Shown: in pieces, positions 20,579 to 60,462 of the stretch
How positions within the stretch are numbered: position 1 is the first letter of the stretch
Layout of the letters: each line of letters begins with the position of its first letter
DNA from: Rhizophagus irregularis
Taxonomy: Eukaryota
Direction: 5' to 3'
DNA: 64,000 bases
NCBI RefSeq assembly: GCF_026210795.1
Contig: NC_089431.1
Coordinates: 2,294,001 to 2,358,000, forward strand
The notes under the pieces: model-generated
Databases searched by the model: none
Seen by the model: the letters and a program-made list of their open reading frames with translations, nothing else
Told to the model about the DNA's origin: nothing
Program-made: the position numbers and the translations under genes

Positions 20579-21488
20579 AATTCACTCTTATTATTATATA
20601 ATATTAATATATAAAAATAAAAAATAACTACATGGAAAATTAACCAAAAAAATTATATAATTTCAAATAAAACTATTACATGCATTATTAACATTAATTC
20701 TTTATTAATTTAAATTAGCAATATTCTATAAAGATATATAATTTTTTTATAATATTAAATATAGTATTATATAAAAGCAAATCAAAATTATCAATTATAG
20801 AATCAAATAAGATCGTATATAATAAAAAATTTGTATTTTAACTAATCATATAAATCTAAAGGCTAAAGCTATTTTAACAAGTTTGTTATATCCTTTTTTT
20901 TTAATATACTGTGCATTTATTAGTTAAAGTAAAAAAAATTATAGATATATAAAGTACAAAAATAATAAATTAAATTACAGAATACTAATAAATTACTTAT
21001 CATCCAATACTATAAACTCTACATATACACAATTAATATTTAGCAGATTAAAACAGCTATATAGGTATATATTTATAAAAAATTCATTTTTAGCATAAAT
21101 GCTTGTAATCTAAACTAGTAAAAGCTACCTTACTATAACTAATATTACCATATATTAGTAAAAATTAAAAACAAAAAAAACTATATAAATTAATAAAATC
21201 CTTTTATAATTTCTATAAAGTCATTTACTTAAGTAAATAAAATGGCAAGTTAGCCTAATTAAATTGTAAAACCATTTTGATTTTCTGGATTTTCAGATTA
21301 AGTTATGGAAAATAAATATATTAGTAATTAAAACTCAAAGAAATATCATTTATGGCAAATATATTTAATATATCAGTATAAAGAATAAATATATTGTAAA
21401 TAGCATTCAAATTCAAATAAAATTAGAGAAGAAATTCTCACATGGACCATTTTTTCACGAAAAAATAATATTTTATTTTAAAGTAACT

Positions 21489-34161: not shown

Positions 34162-34240
34162 TTAGTATAATTTATTATGCAAAATATTATCTGAACTGCA
34201 AAGCAGTTCAGATAATATTTTGCATAATAAATTATACTAA
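34162..34240. repeat. Perfect 38-bp-stem hairpin with 3-nt loop
   Basis: ttagtataatttattatgcaaaatattatctgaactgc-aaa-gcagttcagataatattttgcataataaattatactaa. Confidence 0.9.
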
Positions 34241-36922: not shown

Positions 36923-37081
36923 TTAATAAAAAGAAGAACCATTAAAAAATGGTGAGAATATAAATTGTCTGGGCAATCGGCGTATTGTTCCTATGTAATC
37001 GTGACTTAGATGCTTTCTTAAGAAACGCAATTTTCTGCGTTCGGAAACGACACTCTTTTTATTTTTATGTAAAGAGGGCAT
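36923..37081 (-). CDS. Arg-rich micropeptide family member 1 (52 aa): MPSLHKNKKSVVSERRKLRFLRKHLSHDYIGTIRRLPRQFIFSPFFNGSSFY
   Basis: Translated manually (below the ORF-track cutoff). ATG to TAA; shares the C-terminal FFNGSSFY* with its paralogues. Confidence 0.75.
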   Translation of the reverse strand: MPSLHKNKKSVVSERRKLRFLRKHLSHDYIGTIRRLPRQFIFSPFFNGSSFY

Positions 37082-39785
37082 TATGTAAGAGTGTTTTTTA
37101 TAATTTTTTATAACAAAAAATTATAAAGTATACGAAGAAAGATAAAAATCGAGGGTATTTATATTAAATATCGACCCTGTTATTAGATATTTAGTTGGTA
37201 TCATAATTTATTATTGAATTGATGAACCAATGGATTATTAAGCGCTAAGCTAATTACGTTCTTTTAGATTTGACATACTTGTATTAATCAAATTAATAAA
37301 ATGCAAGGGTTTTATTTGTTTATACATTATAATTTAAGTAAATGGTTTAAATGAATTAAACCATTTTTTCCTATTTTTTCTATAAAAAGTGCTAATGTCA
37401 AATATCCATATTAAGGTCTTCAGGTTACATTTTAATTTATTTCAATTTTTGTTTGAATGAAGATTTAGTGCGCGTGTTAAAATCATGATTTCTTAGAATC
37501 TTGCATTTGATGTCAATCAAAGTTTGTGTAACATAATTATGATGTTTAAATACATAAATATAATAATACTTATAATACCAGATTTAAACGAAAAATCATC
37601 AATAATCAAATAATTGACCACTGTCTCTATAAAAATGCTAATATACATTTGAAAGCGTTACATATTATTGTATAAAACGCACAAATTTAATATATTGAAA
37701 GGAAATTAAATTAACTGTGTGACAGATCACAGTAAACCAAGCTAAAAATGTTCTTATACAAGAAAAAAACCTGTTTCTTTTACCCCTAAAAAATAAATTA
37801 CCTAATTTGTTATCAACGTGCTCATATAAGTACCTCTAGATTTCGTATATTTGAAACGGGGGAGAAAATTAATAAAAATCAAATAAAATTTGTGTACTTT
37901 TTATGATTGTAATGTTTAAACTTAAATGAAAAATTCTTCGTTAAATGATAAATTCGTGCGGAATAAAGTAATTTCATCTATTTTTAAAATGAACATGTTG
38001 AATCATATTACGTAAATATTTTAAACAAACGATAATAGAATAATAGATGTACATTGCATCTGACATCGGAGAAAAATGTTTATGCATTTTAAAAAATTAT
38101 TTATTGCACTTTACGCCCAGACCCTTACCGTTAAGTGGTGCTTTTTTAAATTATTGTATTACAAATTATAAATAATTACCAAAAAAAAAAATTTATATCC
38201 AAGAATGCAAATTTTGGATAATTTTTATGTGACATTCAAAATTATTCTTTTAATTTAATTATAATAATATTACATTCTCATTCTCCGTTAAACAAGAAAT
38301 CAACAATTTTTTTATGATTTCTTATTTAATATTGAAATCTAAATTTACTTTATTTCATTGGACCACATGGATTTTTATTTCTATAGAAAATTCCTTTTTT
38401 TTTTTACAAATTTTAAGATTCCCGAAAAATAAAAATAAAAAAAAATATATAATATATACTATACACCATACACCAACGCCAAGAAAAATTGTACAACGAT
38501 GATTGTATTACTTTCGACTTTCAAGATGCTTTAATATACAGCGCATACAAATTCGGTGAGTAAACCGATTGGTTTACAAAATAAATCATTCACTAATTTT
38601 ATTTTCATTGAAGTTTAAAAAACGAAAATATAACAAAATTTTTATTAGCCTAAAGAATTAATATTCTATTTCGAGTGTCAGGGTCTTTACACAAAATTAG
38701 TGATGAAATTATTATTTTACATAAATGAACATGTTTTTCTCCTTAAAATTAATTGGTTAATTCAGCTCAAACAATAATGCGGTATTATTATTATTATTAT
38801 TATTATATCTGTAAATCCTAGATTTATCTCTATAGAACTTTAAGCATTTTGTAAGCATTTTTTGTTATGCTTATTGATTTGTGTGACACCTGTCAAACTG
38901 CTGTCAAATACTGTACATTATACTGCATATCTCTTACATAAATTTTTGATTTTTTTTTAAAAAAAAATCTATTATAGAAATAATAGAATCTTGAGTTATA
39001 CTAAAAATTCATTACACGAAGAATCAAAACAGTTCCTTTAAAAAATTTACAAAACTGAATATAGCACTTATACATAAAAATAGAAAATGTACAAACATTT
39101 AAAACTATGATAAAGATAGGTGTTAATATTGTTCCTATTCCTAATAGTAAATATTTCATTATTGCCAATATAAAAACATTAGTATATATGATTCATTAAT
39201 CTTATATTATTGCTCGGTTTAATTTGCGTAAGCTTTTAAAATGAATTTATAAAATTTATTCCCTTATTTTCAAAAAAAACAAAAAATCTTTCATTTATAA
39301 TTCACAATAAATATATTTGTTTCTTAATGATATTGTTTGAATATTTATAACAACATTACCATAACCAGAATTTATACCTTACAATAATAGTTTTTTTTTA
39401 AATGTTTGGAAAGCTTCAAACTAGGAAATTTCGATCCAAATTTTGATATAAGTAAAATATGTTTAAGGATATATATATCATATGCTATTACAATAAATCG
39501 TTTCAATCAACAATTTATATGATAAATATAGTTAGATTATGAGGTTTTATAGAATATGAATTCTGGTCGATGATAATTATGTTTCAGATCCAAAGATGCT
39601 TATGAAAATACCTCAAAAATGAAAACCCTGTAAAAAAAAGGTCGATCCGTTTTTTTATATTTCATCCTTTTTTCCGTAAAAGGCTCATATATCCGGAATT
39701 AATAACCTTATATCACGGAATTTTTCGAGTTATTTTCATTTTCCGTGGGTGGATCCATTTTTACGGAAATTACGGATAAGATTTT

Positions 39786-40020
39786 TTATAGCAATCTTTT
39801 ATCCTTTTTCTTCTTCCAAGCGTCAATTACGACACCTTTAACTTTTTCTTCAACTTCTAACCAATTTTGCTTAGCCAATCTAACCATTAAATCAATTTGA
39901 TCAGGAGTGTAAATAAAATTAGCGAAAGAAGCAAATTTAGCGGTACTAGGTACAAATTTTTATCAACTTTGTCTATGATAAACTGCAGGAGTCGTGTATC
40001 TATCAGTAATCATAAACTTG
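39786..40020 (-). pseudogene. Fragment resembling the C-terminus of a cPLA2/lysophospholipase-like protein
   Basis: Manual translation ..YTTPAV..KVDK/FVPSTAKFASFANFIYTPDQIDLMVRLAKQNWLEVEEKVKGVVIDAWKKKKDKRLL*, with frameshifts and no upstream gene body. Family call is from memory. Confidence 0.55.
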
Positions 40021-41872
40021 CGAAGTGATGATTATTTGAACTAATGAACATTTGGACTATTGGACTATTGTTATTATTCAACTCAAGTCCAAATTTCTAA
40101 TTGGATAATATCTCTCTATTACAATGATAATGTCGCAAAATGGTTGACTCCGTTTTGGTGGATTTCTAACAAAATTCTAAAATTTATTGTATTTTGATAT
40201 ATGAAGTTTCGAAATGTTTGAAAATTATAAGAAGGAAGCTTGGAATTCAGAATGTAAATTGGATCGAAATTGAATTCCTTTTTTTAAAAAAGTGTAAAAC
40301 ATAAATTTATAATTCCAGCTAAAAATTATGCATAATGCAGGCCAATATGTGCTGATATTTGGATATTTGAGCTTATATGCCGATTATCCAAAATTCCAAA
40401 TGTCACAATAGTGCGATTGCAGGAATTAGACAATGTCAATACAGTATCATCAATTGTAAATGCATGGATAATATATTGATTAATTTTACGAATGATTTTT
40501 ATCATACTATTTAAAAGTAAGGAAAAAGAAAAAAATAATAATACAAAAATTTTCTCAAAACTAGAATTAAAACACGATTTAAACAGATTAAATGCTATTA
40601 TAATATTATTATAATCTAGTTAATACTGACATACAAATATTATAAAGGAATTCTAATTGATATTCAAAATGTAAATAACTTGATTTGAAATAATATATAT
40701 ATAGTTAATAAAGAAATCGAAAACTGAAAGAAATATTCAATATATAGTCATATGCCGATCATCGATGAAGCTTTGGGCTAAGCCACAGATGTTCGGGTGA
40801 AACTTGAAACTTTTATAATATATTATTTAAGTATTCAAGAATTTATGACTAAAATAAACCAGGATAATTTTTAATAAACCAGTAGTTATCATTAAATAAA
40901 TACTTGCAATTATTATAAGATAATAAAGCTAATTTTTGGCAACATTTTGAACTGTTTTAAGAATTAATTCATTAACAATAAAAAAATAAATAATCAATAT
41001 GAAACTCAATACAACATATGGTTAAACTATAATAATATGTAACTAATAGATAAAGTCCTTTATTTTATATAAAAATGCTTAATTTTTTATTAAATTATAA
41101 AAAGTATCATTAGTAAAGTTGGTTAATAATATTCCGATTTAAGGTAAAAATTAATATACTATAATTCCGAAGTTAAATGAAGCTATTATTAAAATTTTAG
41201 TATACGTTAATATGTAAATTTTGCAAAAAAATCACTGATAACGGTATTTTTCTTATGTGATAAGATTGACAAAAATGATTGGAAAATCGTGATAAAATAG
41301 CGTTATCCAAATTTAGCTATGAATCGGTCATCTTCCGATAAAGTAGACTAGTAGTAGTAATTTATTATCCAATAGATATTCACACAAAACAATTCTTGTA
41401 TCCAACTATAACTAAGTTTCTTCCAGAGAACTATTTTATTTTATTAAAGTACCAATTAGAGTCAAAGAGTTGTAAATTCATGAAATAAGTAATCAGCGAT
41501 CAGATATAATAAGGTTTTTTTTTGTCTTGTGTATTTTATTATACACATTTAAATATGAAACATGGTTTATTAAAATTTTTAAATTTAAGATATCTATTAT
41601 AATCGGTATAAATCCGATAAAATAAAAGTTTCTTTATTATAAAAATAAATTGGGTTAACAAAAGAATAGAAAATTTAGGCTTTGAAATTTTTTTTTTTTC
41701 TTTCATTTTAAATTTAATGCATTCAGTTATTTAGTTTATACCTTTTATGCATTGTTTTGAACTCATTCATATAATGAATAAAATGTAGAAACAGAACTTG
41801 ACCACAAAAAAAAACAATGACTTCACAAAAAATAAAAATGGTAATAAAGAAAAAAGTTTAATTATTAAATAT

Positions 41873-41986
41873 CACTGCTGGTGATTGTCACCACCTTACC
41901 AGAATTAGAGTAGAATTTTGGGCAGAATTAAAAATGACATGAAACTCTGCCCGTTAACATTTGTTAATGCTGGATCACCTGCAGTG
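41873..41986. mobile_element. Small CACTG-ended (CMC/EnSpm-like) MITE
   Basis: at|cactgctggtgat ... atcacctgcagtg|at; 2-bp TSD. Confidence 0.55.
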
Positions 41987-42510
41987 ATACCCTTAATTAT
42001 TAAAATTGATATACTAATATTTGTTAAAACGATGCTTTTATGACACTAATATAAATGTTATTTATATTATCGACTTATATAATTTATTAATAAAAAGTTA
42101 ATGTAAAATTTATTTGTAATAAATAAAAGTTTCTTAGTTTATTGGTTCATAGGTTCGTAATATCTTTACTTATTATGAAACATTTACTTACAATGGGGGG
42201 AAAATTTTACTTACAAAATGTCAAAGGTAACCAATAATAGGAATAAATAAATATAAAATTCGAAGATCTTTAAAATGTACACGTTAATTGGGTGTAATAT
42301 CAGGGTATATTTTTTAAAAAAAGGAAGAGAATCAACGAAAAAAAGAATTTTATGATTAGAAAAGTAGTCCTATGCGAATAAACGAGATTCGAACTTAAAT
42401 AAATGAAGAACATTGTAAAGCGGAAAGTAAATTTTAGTTTTAAAATGATTAAATCTGAAGAAAAAGTGCGAAATTTTGCAAAAAAAATAACCATTAAAAG
42501 TATTGTTTTC

Positions 42511-42687
42511 CTAATAAAAGGAAGAGCCACAAAATAATTGGATTACAAATTCATCTTGTGAATTTTGTGGAGCCATTTGACGAATTCTCCTCAATGTGTC
42601 GATATGAGGTGATAATCGAATATTTCGAAATTGTCGTCTTCTGTTACGTTGAATTAATCGTCTCCTATTAATATTTTGATTGAACAT
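42511..42687 (-). CDS. Micropeptide family member 2 (58 aa): MFNQNINRRRLIQRNRRRQFRNIRLSPHIDTLRRIRQMAPQNSQDEFVIQLFCGSSFY
   Basis: Translated manually. ATG 42685-42687, TAG 42511-42513; carries the full family motif. Confidence 0.85.
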   Translation of the reverse strand: MFNQNINRRRLIQRNRRRQFRNIRLSPHIDTLRRIRQMAPQNSQDEFVIQLFCGSSFY

Positions 42688-43573
42688 TTGTATAACTTTT
42701 TTTTTTTAATACAAAATTATGTCGAATTTAAAAAAAAAATTAACGAATATTTATAGTGTTGACGACTAAAGTATTCGCTTCTTTCACATGCCCAAAATAA
42801 TCAGTTCTTACAAATAAAAAATTGTTTTCATTCATTTTAAGATTTTCTTAGTACAACAATCAATATGTAAACATTGTTCTCTAAAAATTTTTGTACTAAT
42901 AATCGAAAAACGGTTACTTATTATAAATCCAATATCCTATTTGTAGTTAGGAAGCAGGTCGGATGATATTTTAACCCCCCTGCCCAATAGACAGTCACTT
43001 GATTTTACCACTTAATATATCTAATATATCAATATTTTTCCACCTACGGTTAGCATAGTAATAATTGTATTTTATTCCTCTTTCGTTTGTTGATAGTTCT
43101 GTGATTTATTTATTTGATCGTTCTAGAAATGAATTTTGCAAATCAGTAAATCCAGTGCTTATAAGGCATACAAGGAATTACAAATAAAGTAATTTATGAA
43201 AGTAACAAATTTTTTCGGTAGCATATTTGTGATAGTAATGATAGTAATACTAAATAATTCACTTTGAAAGTAAGCTGTCGGATTCTATAGTTCATTCAAG
43301 TATTGAATTTTGTCGGCCGTAAACCTTTTTTTAAAAAATCGGGTTTGTCGGCCGAAATGTATCAATCTAACATTTTTTCCGATTAAAGAGGCAAATATTT
43401 TGTTTCAATACCTTTCTTAAAAAGATTAATTCACATAACAATTAATACACAACAATTAATAACAATGTTAATTGACTAATTCCTTTACTTCCGGAAACCG
43501 TGATTGTTTTTTTTCATTCTTAAACAAATTTATTTCGCTAAATATATTTATTTCAATGAAAAATAATAAAAAT

Positions 43574-43718
43574 GGGAGCATCCTTAACTTACGCATCATG
43601 TGTACGATATTAACGTACGCACTGGCCGGAGTTAAGTTTAACACTATCATCTGCAAGTGCATAACTCCTAAACTCTGTTAGGATATACGTACGCACGGTG
43701 CGTACGTTAAGGAACTTC
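43574..43718. mobile_element. MITE, copy 2 of the 1707-1860 family (inverted)
   Basis: aat|gggagcatccttaac ... gttaaggaacttc|aat; shared core gtacgatattaa.gtacg.actggccg.agttaa. Confidence 0.75.
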
Positions 43719-45365
43719 AATAAAATGGTGAGTTTGATATTTAAAAATATTATTAAATCATAGTATTGTTAAAAACATACTCTTCAGCTGCAGTCTTACT
43801 TAATCTTATAATTTGATCAGTACAGCATAATCTTGCATAATTCCATCAGACCGAATTATTTCAATAACTCAGTTAAAAACAGGGGGGAGTTATTCAATGA
43901 TTACATAAGAATGTAATACCAATTTAAATAATGTAATAAAAATACTGTACTAAAGAAAGGTATAATTAACTATTATAAAATTAATTTTAAAAATAATTAC
44001 TATATTCAATTTTGAAAAAGGTTTCCGCGATAATGAATAACCGCCGGTACAATAAGTCAATAACTCAATAACTTCCAAATTAGAATCGCGTGAATCAAAT
44101 GAAAAGGATAGATTGGTAAAACAATTGTTAAATAACAAAAATTATTACCAATCATTATTCTAAATGGTGAAAATGGTGATAAACGAGTTAAATGACAGAT
44201 TTGGCGATATGGCGAAATACATATGATACAATATAATCATCGTACGACATCGAGTAACTGTTACCAAAACAAAAATAAATAAGTAAATAAATATTCGGTA
44301 ACGTGACTTTGTATTCACAAAGGTATTCGATAAAAATAGTAACAATAGTTCGCAATAAAATAATATTTTTTTTAACAAATTCTTTATTTCAGTAGTATTT
44401 TTTTTTTTTGAAAAGTACATTATTGTTGTGTTCTAATTTGTTTTGAAAATGAAAACGCGTTTTTTTCTATAATAAACATAAATATAATGAAAGTTTTCTT
44501 TTTATAAATCTAGGAGTTTTAAAGGTGAACTATCAAGTTTTGAAAAGACTTTTTTTTATTTAATATAGCATAATAGTTATTATCATTCTAATACAATTAA
44601 TTATTCATAATTTATTCAACACAATAAAAGAATCATGAAAAATATTAGAAATATTTATATAAATACTTCTTTGCATTTTTTATACTAAAACTACAAATAT
44701 TTTTAGTATAAAATGTTCCTTCTCTTTAGAAAAAAAAACCAACTAGTTCAATTCACGTGATTGAAACAACTGTGCAGTTCCGGACTGCATCGGAACGCCC
44801 GTTTGATCAATAATTACACAAATCGTCGATCATCGGCATCAAATCGTAACTACTTTTATACATGAATATATTATACATGAATATATAAACATGAATATAA
44901 TATACGTAATGTATCACTCTTTCACATATTGCTTTTACTGTAATAAGTAAGATATATGTAAAAATATAGACATATCTATTGTCGTTTTTAAACCAATCGA
45001 AATTCGTCAAAACGGAGATGTAAAATCTCGAATATAATTTAAAATTCTTCGATAATGTTGATAACGATGATCGGGTATCGACGCTTTTTTACTTGTTATT
45101 TCGACTATTTTCCTTTTTCGACGTAAAAAAATAAACCGATTTTTTTTTTTAAATATATTTCTTCGGAGATACGATTTTTAAGATTTGCCAATTTTTTTTC
45201 TTTTTTTTTTGTCCCGATTTTTAAACCGAAAATGCCAATATTTCTTTTACTTTCCACAAATACGAGTCATGAACCAAAAAGTAACTTTTCATCATTTGAA
45301 CAATTATCCTATCACCCAAAAACACTCCACAACACCGAAAAGGTCATAAATAATAATTTTTTAAT

Positions 45366-45539
45366 TTAATAAAAAGAAGAACCTCCAAACAGCTGAGTTG
45401 CAAAAGTTCCTTGAGCATTTTGCAGTGGTAACTGTCTCATAGATGCAACAAAACTTAAGTGGCTCCTATCATACTGAGCCTTCAAGGACCTTCTTCTTCT
45501 TCTCTTAGACACAATATTATTTTTGTTATGAACCATCAT
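45366..45539 (-). CDS. Micropeptide family member 3 (57 aa): MMVHNKNNIVSKRRRRRSLKAQYDRSHLSFVASMRQLPLQNAQGTFATQLFGGSSFY
   Basis: Translated manually. ATG 45537-45539, TAA 45366-45368; carries the full family motif. Confidence 0.85.
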   Translation of the reverse strand: MMVHNKNNIVSKRRRRRSLKAQYDRSHLSFVASMRQLPLQNAQGTFATQLFGGSSFY

Positions 45540-47280
45540 GGACAAAAAACAATATAATATAGAAGTGTGGAAATAAAAGATAAGAATAAAATTATTTTTT
45601 TTTTGAGGGGGGGGAAGACTGTATTTATTACTTTTTTTTAGATTACATAAATTCGGGTATCAATATTTTTTTTTCAGAATCTAACAACCGTTAATTTAAT
45701 TGTTGTCTAATTATCTTTTTAATATTTTCTTTAAAGAACAGATAATTATAGATCAAAATGAAGTTCTTAGTGGAAAAATACACAGAATAGTCTTTTTTTT
45801 CTTCACAGAAACTCGTCCTTAAATAACAAATTATATGATAATAATCAAAACTAGTTAGTTATTTAATCGTAATTGTAACTGTAACTCTAACCGATAAATC
45901 AAACAGATAAAATAGAAAAAACGCATAGAATTTACTATAAATAAACATAAGAATCAAAAGAAGTATTTGTTTGTCCTTATTTAACAAATAAATTAAACAG
46001 CATATTAACCGACAAACAGATAATTTCAACAGTTAAGGAGGTTACATCACAGCGCAGTGTTACACAAAAGTCATTAGTCTATCTGTAATTTGGCCCACTT
46101 TAGTAACACATTATTATGATTTCATTGTTTTCATCCCTGTTGATCAAAAAAAAAACGAACGGTCATTCCCGGTTAATAACGGATAAAATGATTTCACTAT
46201 ATTCATGGTTTGCAAGGATATTTAAATTTTTTTTTTTTCATTATTAACCGTAAAACAAACGTAAAAAAAATTTTTTAGAAGTGATTAATAATAATGATAA
46301 AAAAAAACACAAAATGATGTACCAAAAATTTAATAATTAAATACATTTGGATAACTATAGCATATAAACTGAGTAATTGAAATTTTTATCAAAATACAAT
46401 TAAGGGACTTACTGATAAAAAAAAAAAAAGATTGACATTATGCAATACCAAATTTTTTTTTTTTCACACGTACAAAGAAAAAAGTCGGATTGTACATATC
46501 AGTTTATCAGCTTATCATCTAATCACATGCAGTTACAAGCTACAACGCGGGTCTTACAAATAAAATAATAATCTTGCATTTTTTCAAGAAACCTACTACT
46601 ACATATTTTATTGTATTATAATATTGTACTTCAATGCGTATTCTTTAGACTTCTCACGTGGAAATATTGATTTATTATATAAAAAAACATTTATGTAAAG
46701 AAAAATAAAAAAGAAAATTCCACCAAACATTTTTTATCCATTTTTATATAACTTATAGAAAAACTGATTGTTAAATATTAATAGAAAATGGAAAATATAA
46801 CGAATAAATCAAGTAAAAAATGAATTAAACATAATCATAGTACTTGTGACGTAAATTCTATTGCGATTATTGCGATTTAAATGATAAAAATTATTGATCC
46901 AAGAAAATGGGTAAAGAAATAAACGAATTTAAATAATATTTCATAATAGAAATAATAAAAGGATGGGAATGGGAATTGAAAATTTTTTATCTATAGTAGA
47001 AATCGATTAATAAAAACCCGTTATTTTATGAAAATGCTAATAATTACTAAACTACCTTAAATAAAAGGAAATAGGTATTTATGCTTATAATGCTTACATA
47101 ATTAACTTATTATAAATTTTAGAAATATTGCCGTATTTACAGATTACAGTATTTTATTTGTAAATCGAAAAAGTGATTGACGGTTATATACTGTATATAT
47201 ATATATAGGCGCTGACGATAAAGGATTTGCCGAATGATTTTACCAATTTAAAGTTCTCATGATAGAAGATGAAGGATAAT

Positions 47281-47457
47281 TTAATAAAAAGAAGAACCAT
47301 TTATGATAAAGTTCATAAATTCTTCTTGTGAATTTTGCGGCAATCGTTGCCTTCTTCTTGGTGAATTGTTACTATTGCATTGTGCCAATAGAAATCTTTT
47401 GTTCCTCCTTCGGGTAATAATATTATTCTTGCGATCTGATATCATTTCTTTAATCAT
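47281..47457 (-). CDS. Micropeptide family member 4 (58 aa, or 54 aa from ATG 47445): MIKEMISDRKNNIITRRRNKRFLLAQCNSNNSPRRRQRLPQNSQEEFMNFIINGSSFY
   Basis: C-terminal part of track ORF 47281-47625. Start chosen by length and alignment with the paralogues. Confidence 0.8.
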   Translation of the reverse strand: MIKEMISDRKNNIITRRRNKRFLLAQCNSNNSPRRRQRLPQNSQEEFMNFIINGSSFY

Positions 47458-49815
47458 TAAACGTTTGAAAACCGGGAATAAAGGATTAAAGATGAGATTT
47501 TTGATTTGAATCGGAGCTTTGGTTGAAAACTGCATATTTATAAATAAAAAATTTAACCGTAGTTTTTTTATCAGATATTTATTTCGGAGTTTAAGTGCAA
47601 TAATATCTTCTTTATGGAACGTCACAACAAAATTAATTTTCCAAAGGTCATTGTAATTTCTTTAACGTGTAAAATACAAATAAAGGCATACAATTATTAC
47701 TGTGCCCCTCGAAGTTATGCATTAAAAATGTTTATCTAGTTAGGAAGTTTTAATTATAATTTCGCTTTATATGTAAATATAAAATAGTAATGTTATCAAG
47801 ATAACGAAGATTCGGTTATTCCAATAAAAGAACGGTGAAATACTAGAATCTCATGACCATATTATTTGTTTCCCTTGATCCCCATTTTTGATTATATACC
47901 TTTGTATTGAAATAAATAAACAATTAATTTTTTTTATCTTTAAAAACAATTCTTTAATCGCATATTTTATTTTTAATAATTTTATTTTATGTATATTATA
48001 AATTTTTATATGCTCTTGAATTTTATTTTAGTAAAATGTTAACATAATTATAATAAGTAAGAAGACAGTTATAAAAAAAGTTGTGTAAATTATGATTTTT
48101 TTACCTAGGGTAAAAAAATATTTTTTTTTTAGTTTTTAGTCAAAATTCAAAATTTGTATTTTTAGAAAAAAGGAATTTTTTTCTAGTGTTTTTAGTATTT
48201 TTAGTATTTTTTACTTTTTAGAAATCTTTTTTTGTATTTTTTACTTTTTAGGAAAAAAAAAGAAAAATCTTTTGTTACATTTTTTACTTTCTAGAAAAAA
48301 AAGAAAAAAAAAGAATTTTTTTTTTTTGCTTTTCGTTTTGCTAGTGGTGATTAACAATCGAAACCTTTCACAATCATTTTATTTATATGATTGATTACCG
48401 AAATAGGAAACCGTTAAAAAGAGGATTTTCAATTTGCTGTGATTTGAATGTATAAATATTTTTTTAATCTTTATAATCGGTAATATATATAATCTTAATA
48501 ATCAGGATATAATCTTTATAATCTTTGTTGTTATCCGCAAATATCAGAAGTGATTATATTTATGCTATATCTGAAGTTTCTTTTCTTGTTTTCCTTTTTT
48601 TTTAATCATTGCAATTTTTCAATGTAATAAACAATTATAAATCTTTCTTAAAAAAAAGATAATTGGTATAAACAAGAATTTAAAGTGATTTTACATGAGA
48701 TTTAAACAAGAATTTAAAATTATAAAATAATAATAATAATAATAATAAGCGAAACATATTAGTTGTATTACAAAGATATTCAATTGTTCATTGTTCGATT
48801 TCCAATATGAGAGCATAAAAAAAAAATTTTGGTTGGTCAATAATTATGAAATTATCAATTGACAATTCCAAGTAGTACTAGCATGATTCTAGTACAATAA
48901 TGATTAATTCAATAACCAAATGCGTGTGGCTGAATTGCACACACGAAAAACTTGTTTTTAATTAATGTACATTTTAATTAATGTACATTTTCATTAAAAA
49001 AAAAAAGATTGATAATAAATTTATAATAAATTTCAGAAAAGACGTATTTCTATAAGCGAATATCTTAAAGTAACTTTTATCATGGATAAAATTTATATAT
49101 TTATAATTATAATTATAGAGATAATAACTAGTAACTGTTACCTGTTTAAATTAATTTACCTTTTTTACCTTTTTTTTCCTTTTTCAATTTCATTATTTAA
49201 TAACCAATGAATGAATAATTTATATAAAACGCCACATTTCTTGATTGTTTATCTGTATTGACGGATATGCACAGACAGATAATTGATGTTTATCTTTTAT
49301 CTGTCTCATGTATTCATTTAGACAGATAAAATCATCCCGTACCTGTCCGTATGTTTAATCTGATAATCTGAATTTACCCATACGTTAAAAGAGAACAATA
49401 TAAATAAAACCCAGAAATTACGTCAACATTTTAATACCAAATTTTCGAGTTTTCTTATTTTCGATATTTACTTGATAAAATTATTATTATTATTACATAT
49501 ATATATACATATATTTACATATATGTATGTATTTTTTTTATTTAAGAAATTTTTTACCTTTTTTTACCTCTTTACCTTTTTCAAAAAATTTTTGTTAATT
49601 TAACCATTAAAATATGTAGTGTTATTGTATGACAATATGTAGACCCCTGACTGGTGCTTAAGTCATCCGATCACAGTAACGATAAGCCTTGGCATGAACC
49701 CTCACCAACTTTTCTTTTTGTATTCCGGAATAATTAAGTTACAAAGTCGATGTTATTCAACAAAACATGAACATGATCTTTTTCTTTTTGAATTCATTGG
49801 TTTAAAATTTAATGT

Positions 49816-50860
49816 TGAAATCTTGATATTCAGCCTGAACATTTGAAATGGAAGAAAGAAAAAAAGCATTTATTTTCTCTCATGAAATTTATGGAATTTG
49901 TTTCACAGACTTATAGTATTGATGAAAGTACGATAATCGATAACAGTTGAAAGAAAAAAGTTGTTGTTGTTGATAAGGTTGATTGACTGAGTTGAGAAAA
50001 AAAATTTTTTTTTTTTCCTACCGTTGAAATAAATGCGTTGTCGTGCGTTAAAAAAAAAGATAATGCATTTATTATATTAAGTCATTTTTTATTTTTACTT
50101 TTTATTAAGTCATTTTTTAAAAAATACAAGTTACTTATCAGATTTGAAATTAGGTCATATGCCGAAAATTACCGAATCACATGATACATAATTTCGTTAT
50201 TTTCAAAGGATTTTCATTAAATGAATAAACCGAAAAAATCTTTAGTAGACTACAAAATGATTCAGTAATAATATTATTTAATAAATTCAAAATGGTAACA
50301 ACCGAAAGAAGAATAATAATAATAAAAAAAATAATAATAATAAATCTAACCAAAAAATCATTTAAATATAAATTTTAAATGATTTTTTAATTCAAAGGAA
50401 ATTTGTTTACATTCTGATAAATGGAAATTTTCGATAGAAATTAAAAATTTGATCTACAATAATAGAGTTATCAAGGTTCTTTGATCTAATCCTTGATTAA
50501 TTTTCGAAACTGCATGTAAAAAATTTCCTTTCTTGATTTAACATTTGGTTTCTATAACTGTATATAATATACTATATATGTATTTACTTTAATATTTCTC
50601 TTTCAAAAAAATAAATATATTTGATGCCTGAAATCTTGATAAGTTTGTTCAGCCCTAACATTTAGAATGAAAATTAAAGTTCTTTTTATTTGAAAAAAAA
50701 GGAAAGAAAGACAATCGGTTAAACAATTGCTTTTTTCTCATGAAATGATTGATGTTTGTTTCACAAACTTATTATGTACATCTTCCCAGCAATCATAATT
50801 TTATCGATAAACGTATCATATCGATAATGTTTGAAAGAAAAAATATTACCGTTGATTGTG
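49816..50860. repeat. Diverged direct duplication (about 49816-49985 and 50630-50860)
   Basis: Shared blocks tgaaatcttgata, ttcagcc..aacattt, tctcatgaaat, tttgtttcaca.acttat, tcgataa...ttgaaagaaaaaa. Confidence 0.6.
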
Positions 50861-51313
50861 CGGAATTAAAATCCCACGCACCAATATCGTAATTTATTAA
50901 TTCATTTAAGTCATTTTAAAGTATTAGATTGTATCACAGATTTTTCGAAATTCCATATTCAAATTTATACGTTATTATGTTGTTATATATAAAAAATACG
51001 TATTTGAAACTTGAATTCAATGAAAATGATTTTATTTATTAATATAAAAAATTTACAATAAAAATGAAAAAAATACTTAATTATAATTAAAAAAAAAAAG
51101 GATCATTTTTATCTTGATAATCTTTATAGAAAATGAATTTGAGATAAAAAGATCTATAGATAACAATGTTAAAATGAATAAACTGAAAATTCTTTGATTC
51201 ATTAAATTTTATTAAATGAATCAAAAGATATTAATAGAAATTTCTAAAAGAAATAAAAAAGAATATTTCATCATGATTATCAGAAATACATCGAATTTAT
51301 TGATTGTGATACA

Positions 51314-51550
51314 TCAAAAGGGAAGGGAACCATTGAAAAATTGGTCTACAATAGGGTTTTCCGATATTTGTAGTGGAAATTCCGTTAAAGAATCGAACAT
51401 TTGTTGTGATCCATAATACTTATCATTATTATCGATTAATAATTTCGTATTACGTCGTCTTCGACGGCCTTTATTTCGACTTAAAGTATCGCGTGTAGTA
51501 AGATTTAATGTAGTTTCCCTTCCTCGATTAATTCTTGAATTTGAAACCAT
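51314..51550 (-). CDS. Micropeptide family member 5 (78 aa), ending ...LTEFPLQISENPIVDQFFNGSLPF
   Basis: ORF track; GRRRRRN basic patch and an FFNGSLPF* tail variant. Confidence 0.75.
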   Translation of the reverse strand: MVSNSRINRGRETTLNLTTRDTLSRNKGRRRRRNTKLLIDNNDKYYGSQQMFDSLTEFPLQISENPIVDQFFNGSLPF

Positions 51551-51850
51551 AATATCTGAAATTTATTTATTTTTTATTTATTTTACTTATTTAATTATTT
51601 ATTTAATTTCTAAAAAACGATATTTTGAAGAATATAATAAAATAGTTATTATGAAAGAATTTTTTGAGAAGTTGATAATATTCTTTATTAATAGTATATT
51701 TATTTTTGAGAAGTCGATAATATTATTTATTAGTTGTATATTTATAAATTTCATTTTCTTTGTTTTAAATTTTTAAATTCAAAAATTTAAAAAAATTTTT
51801 TTTTAAAAAAAAAATAATTAAACTTTAAATTCTTCATTGCAATATTTATA

Positions 51851-54130
51851 AAAAAAGTCCCTTTGTTTATAATGAGGAAAAAATAAAAATTTATCAAAGT
51901 GATCGACTATAATGTAACGTAATAAATAATGAGCATATATTTCACTGTATTAAATCGTATTGATTTTTATCACAGATTAATTACACAAAGTTTAGTACAT
52001 ATAAATAAATATAAAGTTTTAACCACGGACATTAAAAAAATTTTTATCTGATTTCATCAAATCTATACATAATTTCAAAATATTTTTTTTTCTTATTAAA
52101 AACTATTCGAATATTTATTTTAATTTTTAAAGTATACTTAATTTTAACAAACTATATAAGTGATAATCAAAGTGATCATCACTCATCAGTTGATTGATAA
52201 TTTTAATGTTATCATCTCCATAAATGCTGCTTAATAACATTCAGGAAGTATAAATATTGTGTGATGGGGGAATATCGTGAATTATTAGGTGTAAGCAACA
52301 TTATACGGTAGCGGAAATTTCGAAATAGGTGAATTTATTAGATATTTTCGACTAATGTGAAACGAGGTTATATTCTATCTCAAGTAGACTCAATGCAATG
52401 AAATATGTGTATGTAATAATTAAATTAACTAAAGCAATTAGATAATATCCAGAATATGAATTATTTCTAAAAAAAACAATATCTTAAAAAGATATTGTGA
52501 AAGAATTTTTGGAGAATTTGACAAATTCGAAAATATTCATTATATTTATAGATTTCATCTTTTGTTAAAAAAAAAAAATTATCAAAGTGATCATCTATAA
52601 TAATATACATCTCACTAATTTTAAACGTATTGATTTGTTGATTATTTGTTATCCCTAATTTATTACACAAAAGTACATATAAATAAATATAAAGCACATC
52701 AAAGGTTAGATACGAACATTAAAAAAAATTTTTATATGATTTTGTCAAGTCCAATAATTTCAAATATTTTTTATTAAACTTATACGAATATTTATTTTTT
52801 TTTAATAATACATAACAAAAATTACTACTATATAGTAGGTGATAATCAAGTGTCCATCACCCAGTTTATCGTCATCCTTGCGAAGACAAAACAGAGCACC
52901 CTTCGTCAGATGTTTTCTTGATATTACTTAATATTACGAGAATTTTGAGTAATATATCATTTATTATTTTAAGAGGATTCGATCTCCGTATAACGCTGCA
53001 TAACAACATTCAGGAAGTAAAAATATTGTATGATGAGGGAATATTGTGAGTTATTAGGTATTGTTCTTAGATAAGAGATTACTGTAAGTACGATGTTAAG
53101 CAGCATTATACGGCAGCGGAAATTTTGAAATAGATGAATTTATTAGATATACTTAACAAATGGTTATGTTCTATTTCAATGCAATGAAATATGTATACTT
53201 AATAAATAAATTAACTAAAGTAATTAGATAATTCTCAGAACATGAATCATTTCTAAAAAATAATATCTTGAAGAATATAAAAAAAAAGGTATTGTGAAAG
53301 AATTTTTGGAGAATTTGACAAATGTCGATAATATATATATTCTTTAATATATTTATAAATTTTCATCTTTTTATTTAAAAAAGTTTCATGTGAGAAAAAA
53401 ATTATTAATTTGAATAAAGTTCAAAATTTTAAAAGATCAAAATTTTAATTCTTCATGCATTCATATTTATAAGAAAATAAAATGTTTAAAAATAAAAAAA
53501 AAAGTCCCTTTGTTTTGTAATGAGAAGAAAAATTATCAAAGTGATCAACTATAATAATGATTTATTTATACATTCGAGTACATTTATTTCACTAGTTTTA
53601 AACATATTGATTTGTTGATTATTTGTTATCACTAATTTATTAATTTATTACACAAGAGTGCATATAAATAAATATAAAGCACATCAAATATTATATACGA
53701 ACATTAAAAAAATTTTTATATGATTTTGTCAAGTCCATACATAATTTCAAATATTTTTTATTAAAACTTATATGAATATTTATTTTAATTTTAAACATAC
53801 TAATTTTCTAATAATACATAAAAATTACTACTATATAGGTGATAATCAATGATCATCACTCACAGATGATATAATATACCATGTAAAGTTTTTTTTAAAG
53901 AGAATTTGATCTCCGTATAGCGCTGCTTAACAGATAAGAGACTACTGTAAGTACGATGTTAAGCAGTATTATACGGTAGCGGAAATTTTGAAATAGATGA
54001 ATTTATTAGATATACTTAACTAATGCGAAACGAGGTTATGTTCTATCTCAAGTGGATTCAATGCAATGGATTATGTGTACGTAATAAATAAATTAACTAA
54101 AGCAATTAGACAATTCCCAGAACATGAATC
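51851..54130. repeat. Three diverged tandem copies of a ~0.7-0.9 kb non-coding unit (about 51851-52562, 52563-53375, 53495-54130), plus an inverted fragment at 54792-54873
   Basis: Blocks ttatcaaagtgatc, ttacacaa, ttatacgg.agcggaaattt, aattaactaaag each occur three times in the same order. Confidence 0.85.
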
Positions 54131-57119
54131 AAGTGGTTGTAAATCAAATTAAAAATAAAATATTTTTGTTTTTGTCTTGACAACATGTAAATGATGATAG
54201 TATTTTCCCTGCATTCAACATTCGAGAAAATAAGTTTCAAAGTAGCTGCAGTTTCTAACATAAACTATAAACACATTTAAAGGACTAATCTAAATTATGA
54301 ATAAAGAACTAAATATGGATTTATCCCATTCATTCGTGTAAAGTTTGAGCCCATTCATATTTCTTGAATAAGTTCGACTATAATAAGGGCGTATACTCAG
54401 CCGATAATATTCACATGATTTATTATAAATTGGAATATGTCCTTCATGTGAATGACGACATATTCAAAAAATAAGTTCAATCTGGTTCCAGGGAAGGGAA
54501 ATTTTTCGTAAAGACTGATAGTAACATCATCAAAAATTTTGCAACTGTTTTAATAAACATTGATAATGGTTTAATTAAAAAAAAAAATGATGATAATTTA
54601 TTATTAGTATAGGAGCTTTGGACTTTTATTATTGTTTTATTTATATGGCTTACCTTTTTTGATCTACAACCTCTTGACTCATGTTCGAAGATCACCTAAC
54701 CACTTTAATATAATTGTTAAAATCTTAAATTTTAGTTTGATCGTCCGTACTGCGAGGTTGTGTCCTCCTCGTTTATTTAGTTTCTAGACCCATCCACTTA
54801 AGATAGTACATAACTTCGTTTGGCAATTAGTCAAGTATATCTAATGAAATTCATCGTATTCAGAATTCCGCTAGTCAAAACTTTTTAATATTTACAAGTT
54901 GTAATACCACAATTTTTGCATTATGACGTAGAAGTTCAGGAGTTTCATTGTTTAAAAAATTACGCTTGTACTTAAAAGGGGACAGATTGGCGGTTTTTAG
55001 CGTTACAAAAAGAAAATTTGGATAAATTTAATAAGCTTAGGGTTTAAATCGATTTATTATCACGAATAAAGTAAACATTGTGTTTCAAGAAAAATCCAAA
55101 GTCTGATATCGTACGAAAGTAATGTAATAAGGTAAAAAGAATATATGAGAATTTTAAATAAATGTCATTAAAAATTCGTTAAATTCATTAATTTTCAAGA
55201 AAAAAAAAAATGAGGAAATAGGGAAAAAAATGTTTAAATAAAAGAAAGTTATGTATATTATCATTTTTTTTTTTTTTTTTTTTGCAAGGAAATTATTTTT
55301 CTTCAATGTATTGATTGAAAGAAAACAAAAAAGAAAAGAATCCTTTGGAGGGTTTATATAATCATGATTAACGTAAATTCGGAATAAAAAATTAAAATAT
55401 AGATAAGAACAATAAGGATATAAATCGATCTTTTGTTAAATAAAAATAAAAATATTTGTTTACAAGTTAACATGTGAATAATGAAATCAGGAGGCCCTAT
55501 TCGTATGTTATATTTGCATAATGTTTATTATATAATCTATCTTATATAATCCAAAAGATGGAAAGGTTAACATTTGAATGAGGTTACCGAACAGGAAAAT
55601 ATTAAATATTTTTCAAACAATGTACAATTATGAAAGTTCATATGATTAATATATTCATTATAATGACAATAAAAATAATACTTTGATGTCATTAACTTAA
55701 AATTTCCGAAATTTAGTGTGATATCGAATAACAGTAAAACCGACTATTATTGAAAAAAGAAAAAGAGAAAAAAGTTCATTATCACGTGACTATTAGTCAA
55801 ATTTTGAAAAATTCAAAGGGACATGAATGGATATTGATCATGGTGTTACGTACGGCGTAAAGTATATCAGATTTTTAACTGGGGCTCCATAAAATTTAAA
55901 ATGTCCATTGTTAATTCTTGCATATGTGATAAACTTTGATGCTTATCACAATATACAGTAATCAGTTCTTTGTATTCTTTCAAACACTATCAAGATTACG
56001 CATTCCCCTATAATTATTATACTTGTAAATAATAAATTAAAAAAGAAATGTAAATGACTAATATCAATGAGGTAAATGGGTAAAAATACTTGAACATCTT
56101 TTCACTATTTAAGAATAGTTGTAAATCCAAATATTTTGGGCGTAAAGAAGTAGAAGGCGTTATTCTATACATTTATTAGATAAACAAATCTGTCGTCGTT
56201 TTCTCTCCACTACGATTCATTTTTATTATTTACAGTATGTCCGATCTCATATTTATTTATACATTTAAAAGTATTCTATTCAATTGCCGTGCGTATCCCA
56301 TTTTCTACATATCAGTTCATTTATTAATAAAAAGTTGGTCCTAAATTATAATTTTCCAATTTTTTTTATATCAAAAAAAAAGAAGACCTTTTAAAGCTAC
56401 CTTTTTTTTTTTGACGTCTTTTGGTGATATGCATACATTATAATGAGCCTGCATCGACGTTTGTTCCTGTAAATCATTACCAAATAATCGGGTAATAATT
56501 TTAGTTGATCCACTCGATCGGTTGAATAATTTAAACCTTAAAAGGCTAAGTATTTCCGCAGTCTGTGGTAAAGCTACCAAATTATGAACAATGTATATTA
56601 GGCGTAAGGGGGTAGGAAAAAAAAAGAAAAAAGAAAGAGATAATATAGTTTTGGGTGAAATTTTCTTTATTTTGCATCAAATCTATTCATAATAATATTA
56701 TAAAAAAATCTAACCAACCATATCAATAAAGTAATAAAGTTTTCGAACAAAAAAAAAGTGATATAAGAATATAGATGATAAATAAATAACTAGTGATTCT
56801 TTAATAAAATTTTTCTTGAAAAGTTTTATAACAAGTTTGATAAATAGAAGAATTTTCCGATGAATGGATTGCCTGTTTTGATTATAAGGTCTGTGTTCTG
56901 AACTTGTAATGAAAATATTAATTAATTAAGGAAATTTGGAGAAATTTTAATTATTAGTTATTAAATAGCTGAACATGTGTATAGTAAATATAAATATTTA
57001 CTAGTAATCTGCAACCGACATATCCCAAAGATGTCACGCATTTCCATAGTATAGGTAGTATTAATTGTGATAAACATTTCAATATTGTGATTAAAAAAAA
57101 ACAAAAAATTCTTTAAAAT

Positions 57120-57344
57120 TTAAAAAAAAGTTGTCCCATTAAACAATTGTTCGGCAAATTCATCATCTATGTTCTGCTGTGGGGGTAATTCTCGCATCCT
57201 CCTTAGCGTATTATTATTATTTAAAATGTTAATCGATGATGGAACAAGTAATAATCGAATTCTTCGATTTAATTGTATTCTGTTGAATTGAAGTCTCCTC
57301 CTTCTTCGATTAATAGAATTATTATTCTGATTTGAAGAAAGCAT
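57120..57344 (-). CDS. Micropeptide family member 6 (74 aa), ending ...TLRRMRELPPQQNIDDEFAEQLFNGTTFF
   Basis: ORF track; RRRRRL patch and the full family motif. Confidence 0.85.
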   Translation of the reverse strand: MLSSNQNNNSINRRRRRLQFNRIQLNRRIRLLLVPSSINILNNNNTLRRMRELPPQQNIDDEFAEQLFNGTTFF

Positions 57345-59345
57345 TTTATTCCTAATTATTTATTTTTACAAAAATTTATAAATACATGTAATCACAGTGT
57401 AGAAAATTTCAAAGATTATATATAGTTTAGTTTCTAGGAGACATTCATTTAAAGATTTTGACAATATAGTGAGAACAATATGACCTTTAATCATTTTATT
57501 TATTTGACCTTTTTTTTTTGGTCTTTAAAAATAATAAGGTTTTTTTGAAATTTTTTTCATGTGAAATAATGATAATTTTTACGATTAACATTGGATTTTA
57601 ACTTGACAAGAAAATAATAATGTACTGTACAATAAAAGTACACAATACAATACACATATATTATTTACTTATTGAATAAAATTAAAAAAATTTATCAATA
57701 GGTGAAAGAATTACCAAATATAGGGTTTTAACTATGAATCTATGATTATAAAGCATGGATGGGGTCATTGTGTGGAGATATGGCAGGTTAGAAATTTAAA
57801 GTTTCAAACAATAATCCCCCACTTATCCACTCGTGATTCTTATAAACTTGTCAAAGTTGACTTACCTTTTTACATTAATTTGTGGCGCAAGGTAACGATC
57901 TCATGTGTTTACATATTACATATTCTAGAATAATGTTGTAAATATGTGCATCATTTAATTTTAATTGGGTATAAGTAGATCTGTGATTATCATCACTTTT
58001 GTTTCAATTGTACATGAAGAAAAATTTTTTCGGCGTATTCGGTAAACGAAAACCCGTTCGCCCTAGCCGTCCATTATAACTTTGGTTCTATCCGACTTTT
58101 AGTCGTTTCCGAAACCTTAAATTCATTGATTACTAATAATAAGTCACAAACCATATGATAATATGATAAAAACATTATTACGGCACTTTAAAAAAATCCT
58201 TTTGAAAAATTGAATCATATGTGCATACTTGCGTTAGTTTGCGTATTATATTATATTTTGTAAAAAAGATGTTATAATATTTAAACCTCCGACGATATTT
58301 AATTTTAATTTATGATCGTCTTTATTGTGAACCATTTTTTTTACCGGTAGATCCCAATGATCCCAATCGACCTATTTTTTTTTTTTACCATGAACTCCAC
58401 ACGTGTATATAGAGTGAACTGCTGCCATATTACAAGTATATCTGTCATGTTAAGTGACTTTATTTTAATTATTAAAAATATATTAAAAATATATTAACTT
58501 CGAGAAAATATGGACTTCTTAATATATTATATACAGTATATGCATACTTATTATACGCATAATTATATTGTACTGAACTTTTATACAGTACATACATAAC
58601 AATTAAAGATTTCTAAATAAAAAAAAAATTAAAGAAAAAAAAATGAATGAACAATATTAAATTCTACAATGATAATATTTTCTTTAAAAAATGTTATTAA
58701 ATAAATATATATATATATAAGCAATAATGTACGTAACTTGCAGCAAAATGCATTAAAATGAACACTTTTTGTTTCCCCATTATAAGTAATATCAAGTGAA
58801 TTATTTCTTTTGACATGTGAATTAATGAAATTATATAATAATATATGGCAAATTAATTTTCATAGCCCATCATAAAAAAAAAAAATACAAAATTATAAAT
58901 AATTTATATAGAGGATTAAAAGAATTCATTGCTAACCGAACAGGAAAAAATTCAATGAAAAAAAAAATCTCATTTTCACGAGAGAAATTTTCTTTTTTTT
59001 TTTTAAAGTTTACCGGAACGACAAAAAATAAATATCCCTAAAGAAGAAAATGTATAATCAAAAACAATTTTTAAAAATATTTTTATTGTACGTTTGAAAT
59101 CAATGAATTTCAATTTATAAATTACATATTCAAACAGCATTTTTCCCCTTTATTGTTTTGCAGAAGTACTAACAAAAGTTTTTACATGCCCATTGTATGA
59201 TTGTATCATACGAATATATCTATTAGAAATTTTGATCCGAATATTTTTATCTGAATTATAAAGTATAGGCTGTAAGATAAGGTTCAGATTGTGCAGATTT
59301 AATGAATATTTTTGGAGTTATACCACTAAAATTAATCACATGCTG

Positions 59346-59620
59346 AAGTGGTTGATACTTCTGGCCGATAACACTGGAAATTGGCATAAAGTTATTGTGA
59401 GTAAATTTTATTATCTGATGTTGCAGTACATGGATATATTATAAAGTTTCAGAAGATGATACGAGAGGTTCGGTTCGTTGATAACTCAATAAAGTGGTGG
59501 ATAATTCTGGCCGACAGCACTGGAAATTAGCATAAAGTTATTGTGGGGGAAATTTAATATTATCTGATGTTACAGTATTTAGTTTCAGAAAATGATACGA
59601 AAGGTTGAGTTCATTGTTAA
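59346..59620. repeat. Tandem duplication of a ~145-bp unit
   Basis: aagtggt.gata.ttctggccga.a.cactggaaatt.gcataaagttattgtg...agtttcagaa.atgatacga.aggtt occurs twice. Confidence 0.85.
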
Positions 59621-60276
59621 AAAGGTACGTAGATTCACGGAATTATGGAGACATAGTAATGGAAATACGGAATTATTCAGTCAGAAAAGACTTTCAAAAT
59701 AATTTTAATAAATTTCAAATTTCTTTTTAAAAGAAAATACATATTAGAAATGGATTAAGTGACAGTTAAATGATTAGAAAAACAGACAATAATAAAAGTA
59801 ACTACAAATAATAAAAATATACTAAAATATACATATATGATATGATAATATGATATACTAACAAATATGAATAACAAATGATATGATGTTATACGTGAAT
59901 GATGATTTGGACTATGTAATAAAAACTAATTAATAGATCTTAAAGCTACAAAAAAAAAATATATATATATTTCGAGCCAAATATCTAAAATTAGAATTTG
60001 GCGTTTGACATATTGTGACTTAATATGCGGTGATCCAAACATGCTTGGTAAAAGCGAGCAACATGCAGAAGCGATAAAACTAAAATAGTTAGCCTATTTT
60101 AATATAAAAGTAATGTTTGAAATTGCTATGAAACATGAAATTTGATAAGAAAAAAAAATTTTTTTTTTGATAGATCATATGACAAATTATATACATTGCG
60201 TTAGAGTAAAAAAAAAAGCTGCAATCTGCGGATTGATAGCCGAATTAATCTTTAATAGGTAAAAAATATTTCGATG

Positions 60277-60462
60277 TTAAGGAAAGGAACAACCTCCAAA
60301 CAGAATTTTTGCATTTTCGTTATCTGTATTTTGAGGAGGCATCTGCTGCATACTCCTTAAAGTTACATCATTATTTATCAAATTTACTAGTCCTCTACTT
60401 CGTCGGATCAACCTTCTCCTTCTTGTATTATTAATTCTACGATTCGAAGATACAGAAACCAT
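60277..60462 (-). CDS. Micropeptide family member 7 (61 aa), ending ...TLRSMQQMPPQNTDNENAKILFGGCSFP
   Basis: ORF track; TRRRRLIRR patch and the family motif. Confidence 0.85.
   Translation of the reverse strand: MVSVSSNRRINNTRRRRLIRRSRGLVNLINNDVTLRSMQQMPPQNTDNENAKILFGGCSFP

Follow-up and report, generated by a model that had tools for sequence, protein, structure and literature searches.

A 64,000-nt stretch of the Rhizophagus irregularis genome (contig NC_089431.1 of assembly GCF_026210795.1, positions 2,294,001 to 2,358,000; hereinafter, the window) carries seven short minus-strand open reading frames (ORFs), g1–g7, which belong to a real, conserved and apparently undescribed gene family of the Glomeraceae. 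This family is far larger than the cluster found in the window. With moderate confidence, we interpret the seven products as non-secreted intracellular docking microproteins, whose conserved C-terminal module would bind and regulate a partner protein.

The coordinates and translations of the seven ATG-to-stop ORFs (52–78 amino acids (aa), g1 starting at 36,923 and g7 ending at 60,462) are exactly those given in an earlier note made from the DNA sequence, and the gaps of 1.7–5.6 kb described there measure 1,741–5,569 nt. It is also correct that no other intact gene lies among the ORFs: no stop-free frame across 26,500–64,000 exceeds 126 codons, a length reached in the frame of g4 itself. A scan of 26,000–64,000 against Rfam gave zero matches. 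The claim that the copies share little DNA similarity was borne out by a BLASTN self-comparison, in which the sole link was a 22-nt match between the ends of g3 and g4. The motif might have mapped to a transposon terminus or another repeat, but neither DNA-level similarity nor terminal repeats were found around the copies.

Leave-one-out hidden Markov models (HMMs), built from the last 30 aa of the window members, recovered g2 (E 1.7e-13), g6 (6.7e-12), g3 (2e-8), g7 (6.3e-7) and g4 (1.3e-5). Within the window, the signal was weak for g5 (E 0.052) and g1 (E 0.58), and these two are joined to the family via relatives outside the window rather than via the window HMMs. No eighth window member scored better than E 0.028 with the same tail models. 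A strict end-motif pattern matched four of the seven ORFs and had 0 matches in 100 Markov controls.

Selection at the protein level was assessed on the tails of the seven ORFs plus those of L001 and L002. The proportion of synonymous differences (pS) was 0.65 and that of nonsynonymous ones (pN) 0.41, with pN<pS in 35 of 36 pairs, a result with some circularity, since the alignment of the tails was itself made at the protein level. Third codon positions were the least conserved (0.45 vs 0.56 and 0.62 for the other two). Sequencing run X8 represents a different allele, and all eight of its indels outside the ORFs are non-triplet, the sole indel within an ORF (g6) being 3 nt long; of three allelic substitutions inside ORFs, one is silent and two change a residue. 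The proposal of an old gene family under protein-level selection, and not a repeat, is thus supported by pN<pS, by the absence of a repeat spanning the ORFs and by the 273 protein clusters described below.

These clusters (50% identity, E<=0.001) came from an exhaustive profile search, after successive earlier rounds had collected 30 and then 66 proteins. The best 150 of the 273 were listed, and 22 of 122 new representatives were checked for species, 10 of them being named. Proteins identical or near-identical to those of the window come from R. irregularis, and all named members belong to the Glomeraceae: R. irregularis, R. clarus, Glomus cerebriforme, Funneliformis geosporum and F. caledonium. 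The Glomeromycotina, pointed to in the earlier note, were thus the right group. Most family members derive from metagenomes, so the family may extend beyond the named taxa. Zero relatives were present among 96 pattern matches in GTDB genomes and among 129 matches in viral contigs, and a metagenome scan confirmed 2 of 538 matches, each on a short contig.

Six of the window genes have an outside relative at 64–93% identity, compared with 25–43% between paralogues of the cluster, and in the tree each of the six groups with its own outside relatives, the pairing of g7 with P0087 being weak (0.39). Thus, g2 is matched by P0009 (54/58) and P0013 (47/58), g3 by P0147 (39/56), g4 by P0010 (53/58), g5 by P0008 (95%) and P0070 (52/78), g6 by P0006 (64/74) and P0079 (47/73), and g7 by P0087 (41/58) and the F. 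caledonium protein P0165 (28/61). For g1, the most divergent gene, the best outside match among the collected proteins is 21/52, with no close orthologue; together with g3 and P0147, it forms one group (FastTree support 0.91). The clade uniting g7 with the Funneliformis protein has a support of 0.86, so the g7 lineage is probably older than the divergence of the two genera. In addition, P0013 and P0220, relatives of g2 and g3, are recorded on one 27,034-nt JGI contig, which suggests that the g2–g3 linkage is conserved. The tree itself is weak, having been built from 184 short sequences (<=50 aa each) with a midpoint root; proteins lacking the anchor motif were omitted from it, as were eight sequences that duplicate window members or are mis-spliced models.

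The anchor motif was present in 183 of 198 proteins, 161 of which end within 5 residues of its Gly. It belongs to a conserved C-terminal module of about 27 aa, whose first half is marked by L, I and L-P-x-Q and whose second half is marked by F/L and Q-F/L-F-N-G-S-x-F. Across the 183 proteins, the key positions are conserved as Q 87%, Q 88%, F 98%, N 86%, G 100% and F 87%, with a helical hydrophobic pattern; the F and G figures were partly preset by the anchor pattern. An AlphaFold2 (AF2) model based on a 138-sequence alignment gave a helix-loop-helix for the C-terminal half (predicted local distance difference test score, pLDDT, 84–89) and a preceding basic helix of low confidence (pLDDT 52–64). 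The last ~33 aa are predicted to form a pair of short amphipathic helices, beyond which the G-S-x-F-x end is free. A homodimer prediction of the module, run without an alignment, scored 0.02.

Ahead of the module, 153 of 157 short members carry a basic, Arg-rich patch of variable length and sequence. This patch is absent from the other four, for example from the 44-aa P0105/L002, and it therefore appears dispensable in a few members. The FNG motif occurs twice in five proteins. Taken together, the missing patches and the doubled motifs indicate that the module stands alone. The composition of the family, in a set that includes alleles, is 14.6% Arg and 2.2% Lys, compared with 6.1% and 7.3% for exons of the window and 3.5% and 10.8% for translated intergenic DNA; Lys is absent altogether from 60 of the 157 short members.

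Transcription was evaluated with reads over 41,500–58,400, an interval without g1 and g7. None of the datasets containing the region is catalogued as RNA. Two runs from two studies, X6 and X8, are presumed to be RNA; their coverage is patchy, and each includes a minus-strand GT-AG join, which is consistent with RNA. Contigs from these runs, which are probably RNA, cover g2, g3, g4 and part of g6. The clearest case is g3, covered by unspliced contigs from both X6 (44,700–45,788) and X8 (44,669–45,572), at a depth of about 28 each and with 3' ends within 31 nt of one another, keeping in mind that contigs cannot prove ends or strand. Over g2 (X8 contigs 42,229–42,457 and 42,492–42,716), g4 (X6 contigs tiling 46,644–47,507 save one 35-nt gap) and part of g6 (X8 contig 56,872–57,273, carrying an in-frame 3-nt insertion), the depth is 3–10, and the coding sequence of g5 has no coverage among the contigs listed. 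Such uneven depth hints at individual regulation of the members. Minus-strand GT-AG introns at 50,250–50,587 and 54,545–54,653 were also observed in the reads or contigs, and neither joint is spanned by a long ORF; they possibly belong to long 3' untranslated regions (UTRs) of g5 and g6, or to separate non-coding transcripts.

The sequence TATAAAT occurs 30–120 nt upstream of the start in five of the seven window genes, or in seven of nine counting L001 and L002, against ~0.13 expected per interval, this interval having been picked post hoc. In addition, three contigs start 29–50 nt ahead of an ATG (g2, g3 and g4). Both observations fit stand-alone genes, as far as contigs, which cannot prove starts or strand, allow. 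In the case of g4, an in-frame upstream ATG at 47,535 would give 84 aa, and the 58-aa start is preferred solely on the TATA-like box and the contig edge (Table 1).

Table 1. Members of the family in the window, the probable g3 transcript and the member L002 (positions of g1–g7 and of the transcript are those of the window).
Feature	Position	Strand	Description
g1	36923..37081	-	52-aa ORF, most divergent member; TATAAATA 82 nt upstream
g2	42511..42687	-	58-aa ORF without Lys; TATAAATA 68 nt upstream; AF2 model
g3	45366..45539	-	57-aa ORF
g4	47281..47457	-	58-aa ORF; TATAAATA 85 nt upstream
g5	51314..51550	-	78-aa ORF
g6	57120..57344	-	74-aa ORF without Lys; TATAAATT 36 nt upstream
g7	60277..60462	-	61-aa ORF; TATAAATA 106 nt upstream
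Probable g3 transcript	44669..45788	- (inferred from the ORF)	unspliced, ~0.7-kb 3' UTR
L002 member	315-449		44 aa, own ATG and TATA-like box, without Arg patch

The expectation that gene callers would miss these genes turned out to be right in part: g5, g6 and g7 are present in NCBI/UniRef, whereas other models lose the conserved tail. Annotation model P0001 joins g3 to g2; models P0014, P0019, P0011, P0224 and P0221 cut off or alter the tails of g2, g3, g4, g5 and g7; and g1 is known only as a Logan call. Since public models often splice away the sole conserved part, expression studies would have mis-scored these genes.

Outside the window, we newly found that the family module seems to terminate truncated F-box-like gene models in three species, R. 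irregularis, R. clarus and G. cerebriforme. Eleven such models, 193–325 aa long, combine a truncated and variably eroded F-box-like N-terminus with the same basic patch and module. The fused orthologues of R. irregularis and R. clarus are 66% identical over their whole length, and the G. cerebriforme protein groups with them (0.94). In the ESM Atlas, the fused N-terminal part is placed with fungal F-box families of 447–494 aa (scores 0.94 and 0.91), and UniRef labels some of the fused proteins 'F-box domain-containing'. In four of the 11 models, the segment from the junction motif to the FNG motif lacks Met, leaving the tail without a start of its own, which argues for real splicing; shorter calls that end at the same residue suggest a two-exon layout. 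Close accession numbers and apparently shared contigs point to a second tandem cluster, represented by four genes on a single contig of R. clarus and by a pair each in R. irregularis and G. cerebriforme. All fused forms fall inside one 81-leaf clade (support 0.91) together with 61 short members, g5 being the sole window gene among them. Such a topology suggests that the fusion arose later, by capture, from an older short form. Nothing longer than 325 aa was present among the best 150 profile matches and three longer matches, so the full-length F-box family is apparently devoid of the tail. The AF2 model of the fused protein P0196 had a pLDDT of 34.

These fused sister models with F-box-like N-termini point to an intracellular role, and the suggestion of a secreted signal is not supported, none of the seven window proteins having a hydrophobic N-terminus (compared with 6 of 157 short members). 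Judged by hydropathy alone, none of the seven carries a signal peptide, the top value for 10 N-terminal residues being 0.69. In our scenario, the near-invariant Gln, Phe, Asn and Gly would form the binding surface for one class of target. The variable Arg-rich stretch might serve for nuclear or nucleolar import or as a nucleic-acid tether and would not be the active part, while the scarcity of Lys may shield the peptides from ubiquitination. Elsewhere, a truncated F-box gene might have captured the module as its last exon; its fused products would deliver the same target to SCF for destruction, whereas stabilisation or inhibition of this target would fall to the free forms. It is tempting to suppose a two-armed switch acting on one target, in which a dozen or more Lys-poor microproteins, each encoded by a gene standing alone behind kilobases of private regulatory DNA, shield what their F-box-fused sisters send to the proteasome; to this extended version we assign a low probability.

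Several observations weigh against such a scenario. Matches of the fused proteins to the Pfam F-box are sub-threshold, with 4 of 10 proteins matching and a best E of 5e-4 (20.2 bits vs a cut-off of 24.3). The F-box has been lost in several fused paralogues, 6 of the 11 members of the P0196 cluster end before the tail, and the fusions are known as gene models rather than from their DNA or splicing. Moreover, six of the seven window genes lie outside the clade that holds the fusions, and no F-box remnant was found in the window; the connection with F-box proteins may thus not extend to these genes. The enrichment of the family in Arg is partly built in by an Arg-rich search query. Finally, the polyA raw-read runs X23 and X24 gave low depth, and 88% of the placed reads continue into unlike sequence, so expression in these runs is weak or stage-limited.

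The charge of the window proteins (net +5 to +10, with 7–12 Arg each) would also suit small basic nucleic-acid-binding proteins that package chromatin or RNA in a protamine-like manner, for example in spores, with the tail used only for assembly or targeting. In favour of such a role, Arg is preferred over Lys despite an AT-rich mutation bias, and the AF2 model places a basic helix ahead of the module. Nevertheless, we consider packaging unlikely: the basic part is the variable one and can be missing, the conserved tail has just 4.4% Arg and is not basic, depth was low in the two polyA runs, whose tissue is unspecified, and the HLH, protamine and histone families give no match among 138 members.

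Quite unlikely, in our opinion, are host-directed effectors or signals that are exported without a signal peptide and enter plant cells via the Arg stretch, the tail then binding a plant protein. The named members all come from obligate root symbionts, the family has undergone multigene expansion, and Arg-rich stretches can be cell-penetrating. However, the window proteins lack a signal peptide and have no more than one Cys each, and the paralogues are individually conserved across species instead of turning over fast. An even less probable role, which we think would be surprising, is that of RiPP-like (ribosomally synthesised and post-translationally modified peptide) or hormone-like precursors, in which a basic leader is removed and the terminal 8–25 residues are released. 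The position of the motif at the extreme C-terminus, its tandem doubling and the basic residues ahead of it could be read in this way, but besides the missing signal peptide there is no modifying enzyme within the 37-kb gene-free stretch, and it is the full 27-aa amphipathic pattern that is conserved, not a variable core amid fixed flanks. That non-coding or transposon-derived repeats read as ORFs by chance is barely credible, for although the region is AT-rich, with transposon relics upstream, and two of the three allelic substitutions alter a residue, the substitution and indel patterns given above, the lack of a DNA repeat across the ORFs and the keeping of frame and stop position across the 273 clusters all speak for coding sequence.

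In line with the earlier statement that no known family could be recognised, searches of Pfam, PDB and the literature gave no described match. Pfam returned nothing meaningful for the seven window proteins or for 138 members, its best family matching only 4 of the latter, and the best E values in a PDB sequence search were 0.084 for the family and 0.058 for the fused forms. Fold searches (Foldseek, 0 matches; VIA-align, best Z 2.9) are uninformative for such a small helical model, and P0015 had no usable feature match in the ESM Atlas. No description of the family was apparent among the open-access papers listed by motif, identifier or topic, and subscription papers or supplements of arbuscular mycorrhizal (AM) transcriptome studies may list the genes; in two supplementary files of PMC11035146, 0 of 6 identifiers were found.

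By analogy, the family may work most like the plant RTFL/DVL (ROTUNDIFOLIA4-LIKE/DEVIL) peptides, to which it is unrelated in sequence. That multigene family (PMC4408365) comprises proteins of 40–144 aa with a conserved C-terminus of ~30 aa, a variable N-terminus and no signal peptide, and the peptides act through binding BSK kinases (PMC10613268). The likeness is one of architecture only: the window proteins are likewise short, lack a signal peptide and pair a conserved C-terminal ~30 aa with a variable N-terminus. Unlike RTFL/DVL, the family is fungal, is clustered in gene-free stretches and has F-box-fused sisters. Membership in RTFL/DVL was rejected, with Pfam DVL matching 0 of 138 members (E<=0.05) and 0 of 7 window proteins (E<=5).

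A second likeness is to microProteins such as LITTLE ZIPPER, small single-domain proteins that regulate larger multidomain relatives; truncated F-box forms have also been proposed as decoys (both PMC7534434). Here, a single module is common to the short proteins and to the 193–325-aa models, several of which are F-box-like. In contrast to microProteins, most members of this family are of the short form, which is probably the older one, the long form having the look of a fusion that came afterwards. F-box decoys without the F-box were reportedly engineered by Lee et al. in 2018. The likely source of the fused N-terminal half is the uncharacterised 447–494-aa F-box families of the ESM Atlas, from Mucoromycota and Ascomycota, whose F-box part the seven window genes lack. 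Secreted AM fungal effectors, CLE-like peptides and MSDIN and KEP precursors are, like the window family, small, lineage-restricted and multigene; the latter differs from them in that it lacks a signal peptide and any Cys pattern, nor does it show a variable core set between conserved flanks. A classically secreted effector or precursor was rejected on the same hydropathy result. A bHLH/Id-like identity was discarded as well, there being no HLH match in Pfam among the 138 members and the linker between the basic patch and the first helix varying in length. PIP box, Cy motif, MSDIN leader, bHLH and the first F-box helix were dropped by eye, key residues or spacing being missing.

As for the surroundings of the cluster, the first 20 kb of the window hold ordinary genes (ORC2, a DEAH helicase, a kinase and an MRG protein), after which comes the relic of a DDE transposase. 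The MRG protein, with a chromodomain and Eaf3-like, occupies one open frame of 361 codons at 18,489–19,574 and has the appearance of a diverged paralogue. Two further open frames, of 165 codons at 816–1,313 and of 146 codons at 21,369–21,809, have zero Pfam matches; by eye, the first shows a hydrophobic segment and then a possible ubiquitin-like stretch. The relic, a broken Tc5/pogo-type transposase on the minus strand (24,101–24,957), lies at the border of the gene-free stretch. Further on, the segment 33,980–34,240 holds a degenerate interstitial telomere-like tract, with six exact CCCTAA units amid variants, and after it an inverted repeat at 34,162–34,240, whose 38-bp arms match perfectly around a loop of 3 nt; an 85-nt piece beginning in the right arm of this repeat reappears at 30,651–30,735. 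Just upstream of g5 begins a set of about three diverged tandem copies (70–85% alike) of a non-coding unit of ~0.8–0.9 kb (51,606–54,142), which contains zero family ORFs.

Overall, R. irregularis has the seven cluster genes and about nine further distinct named proteins, taken over several isolates, and the family has been retained across at least three genera. AM fungi have few known lineage-specific regulators. A synthetic 27-aa module is easily made as bait, so the search for a partner would be direct despite the difficulty of transforming the fungus, and the F-box fusions, if real, would offer a second handle on the same target. If the two-armed scenario is true, it would represent a natural shield-versus-destroy system that is confined to the main mycorrhizal family and mostly invisible to current annotations.

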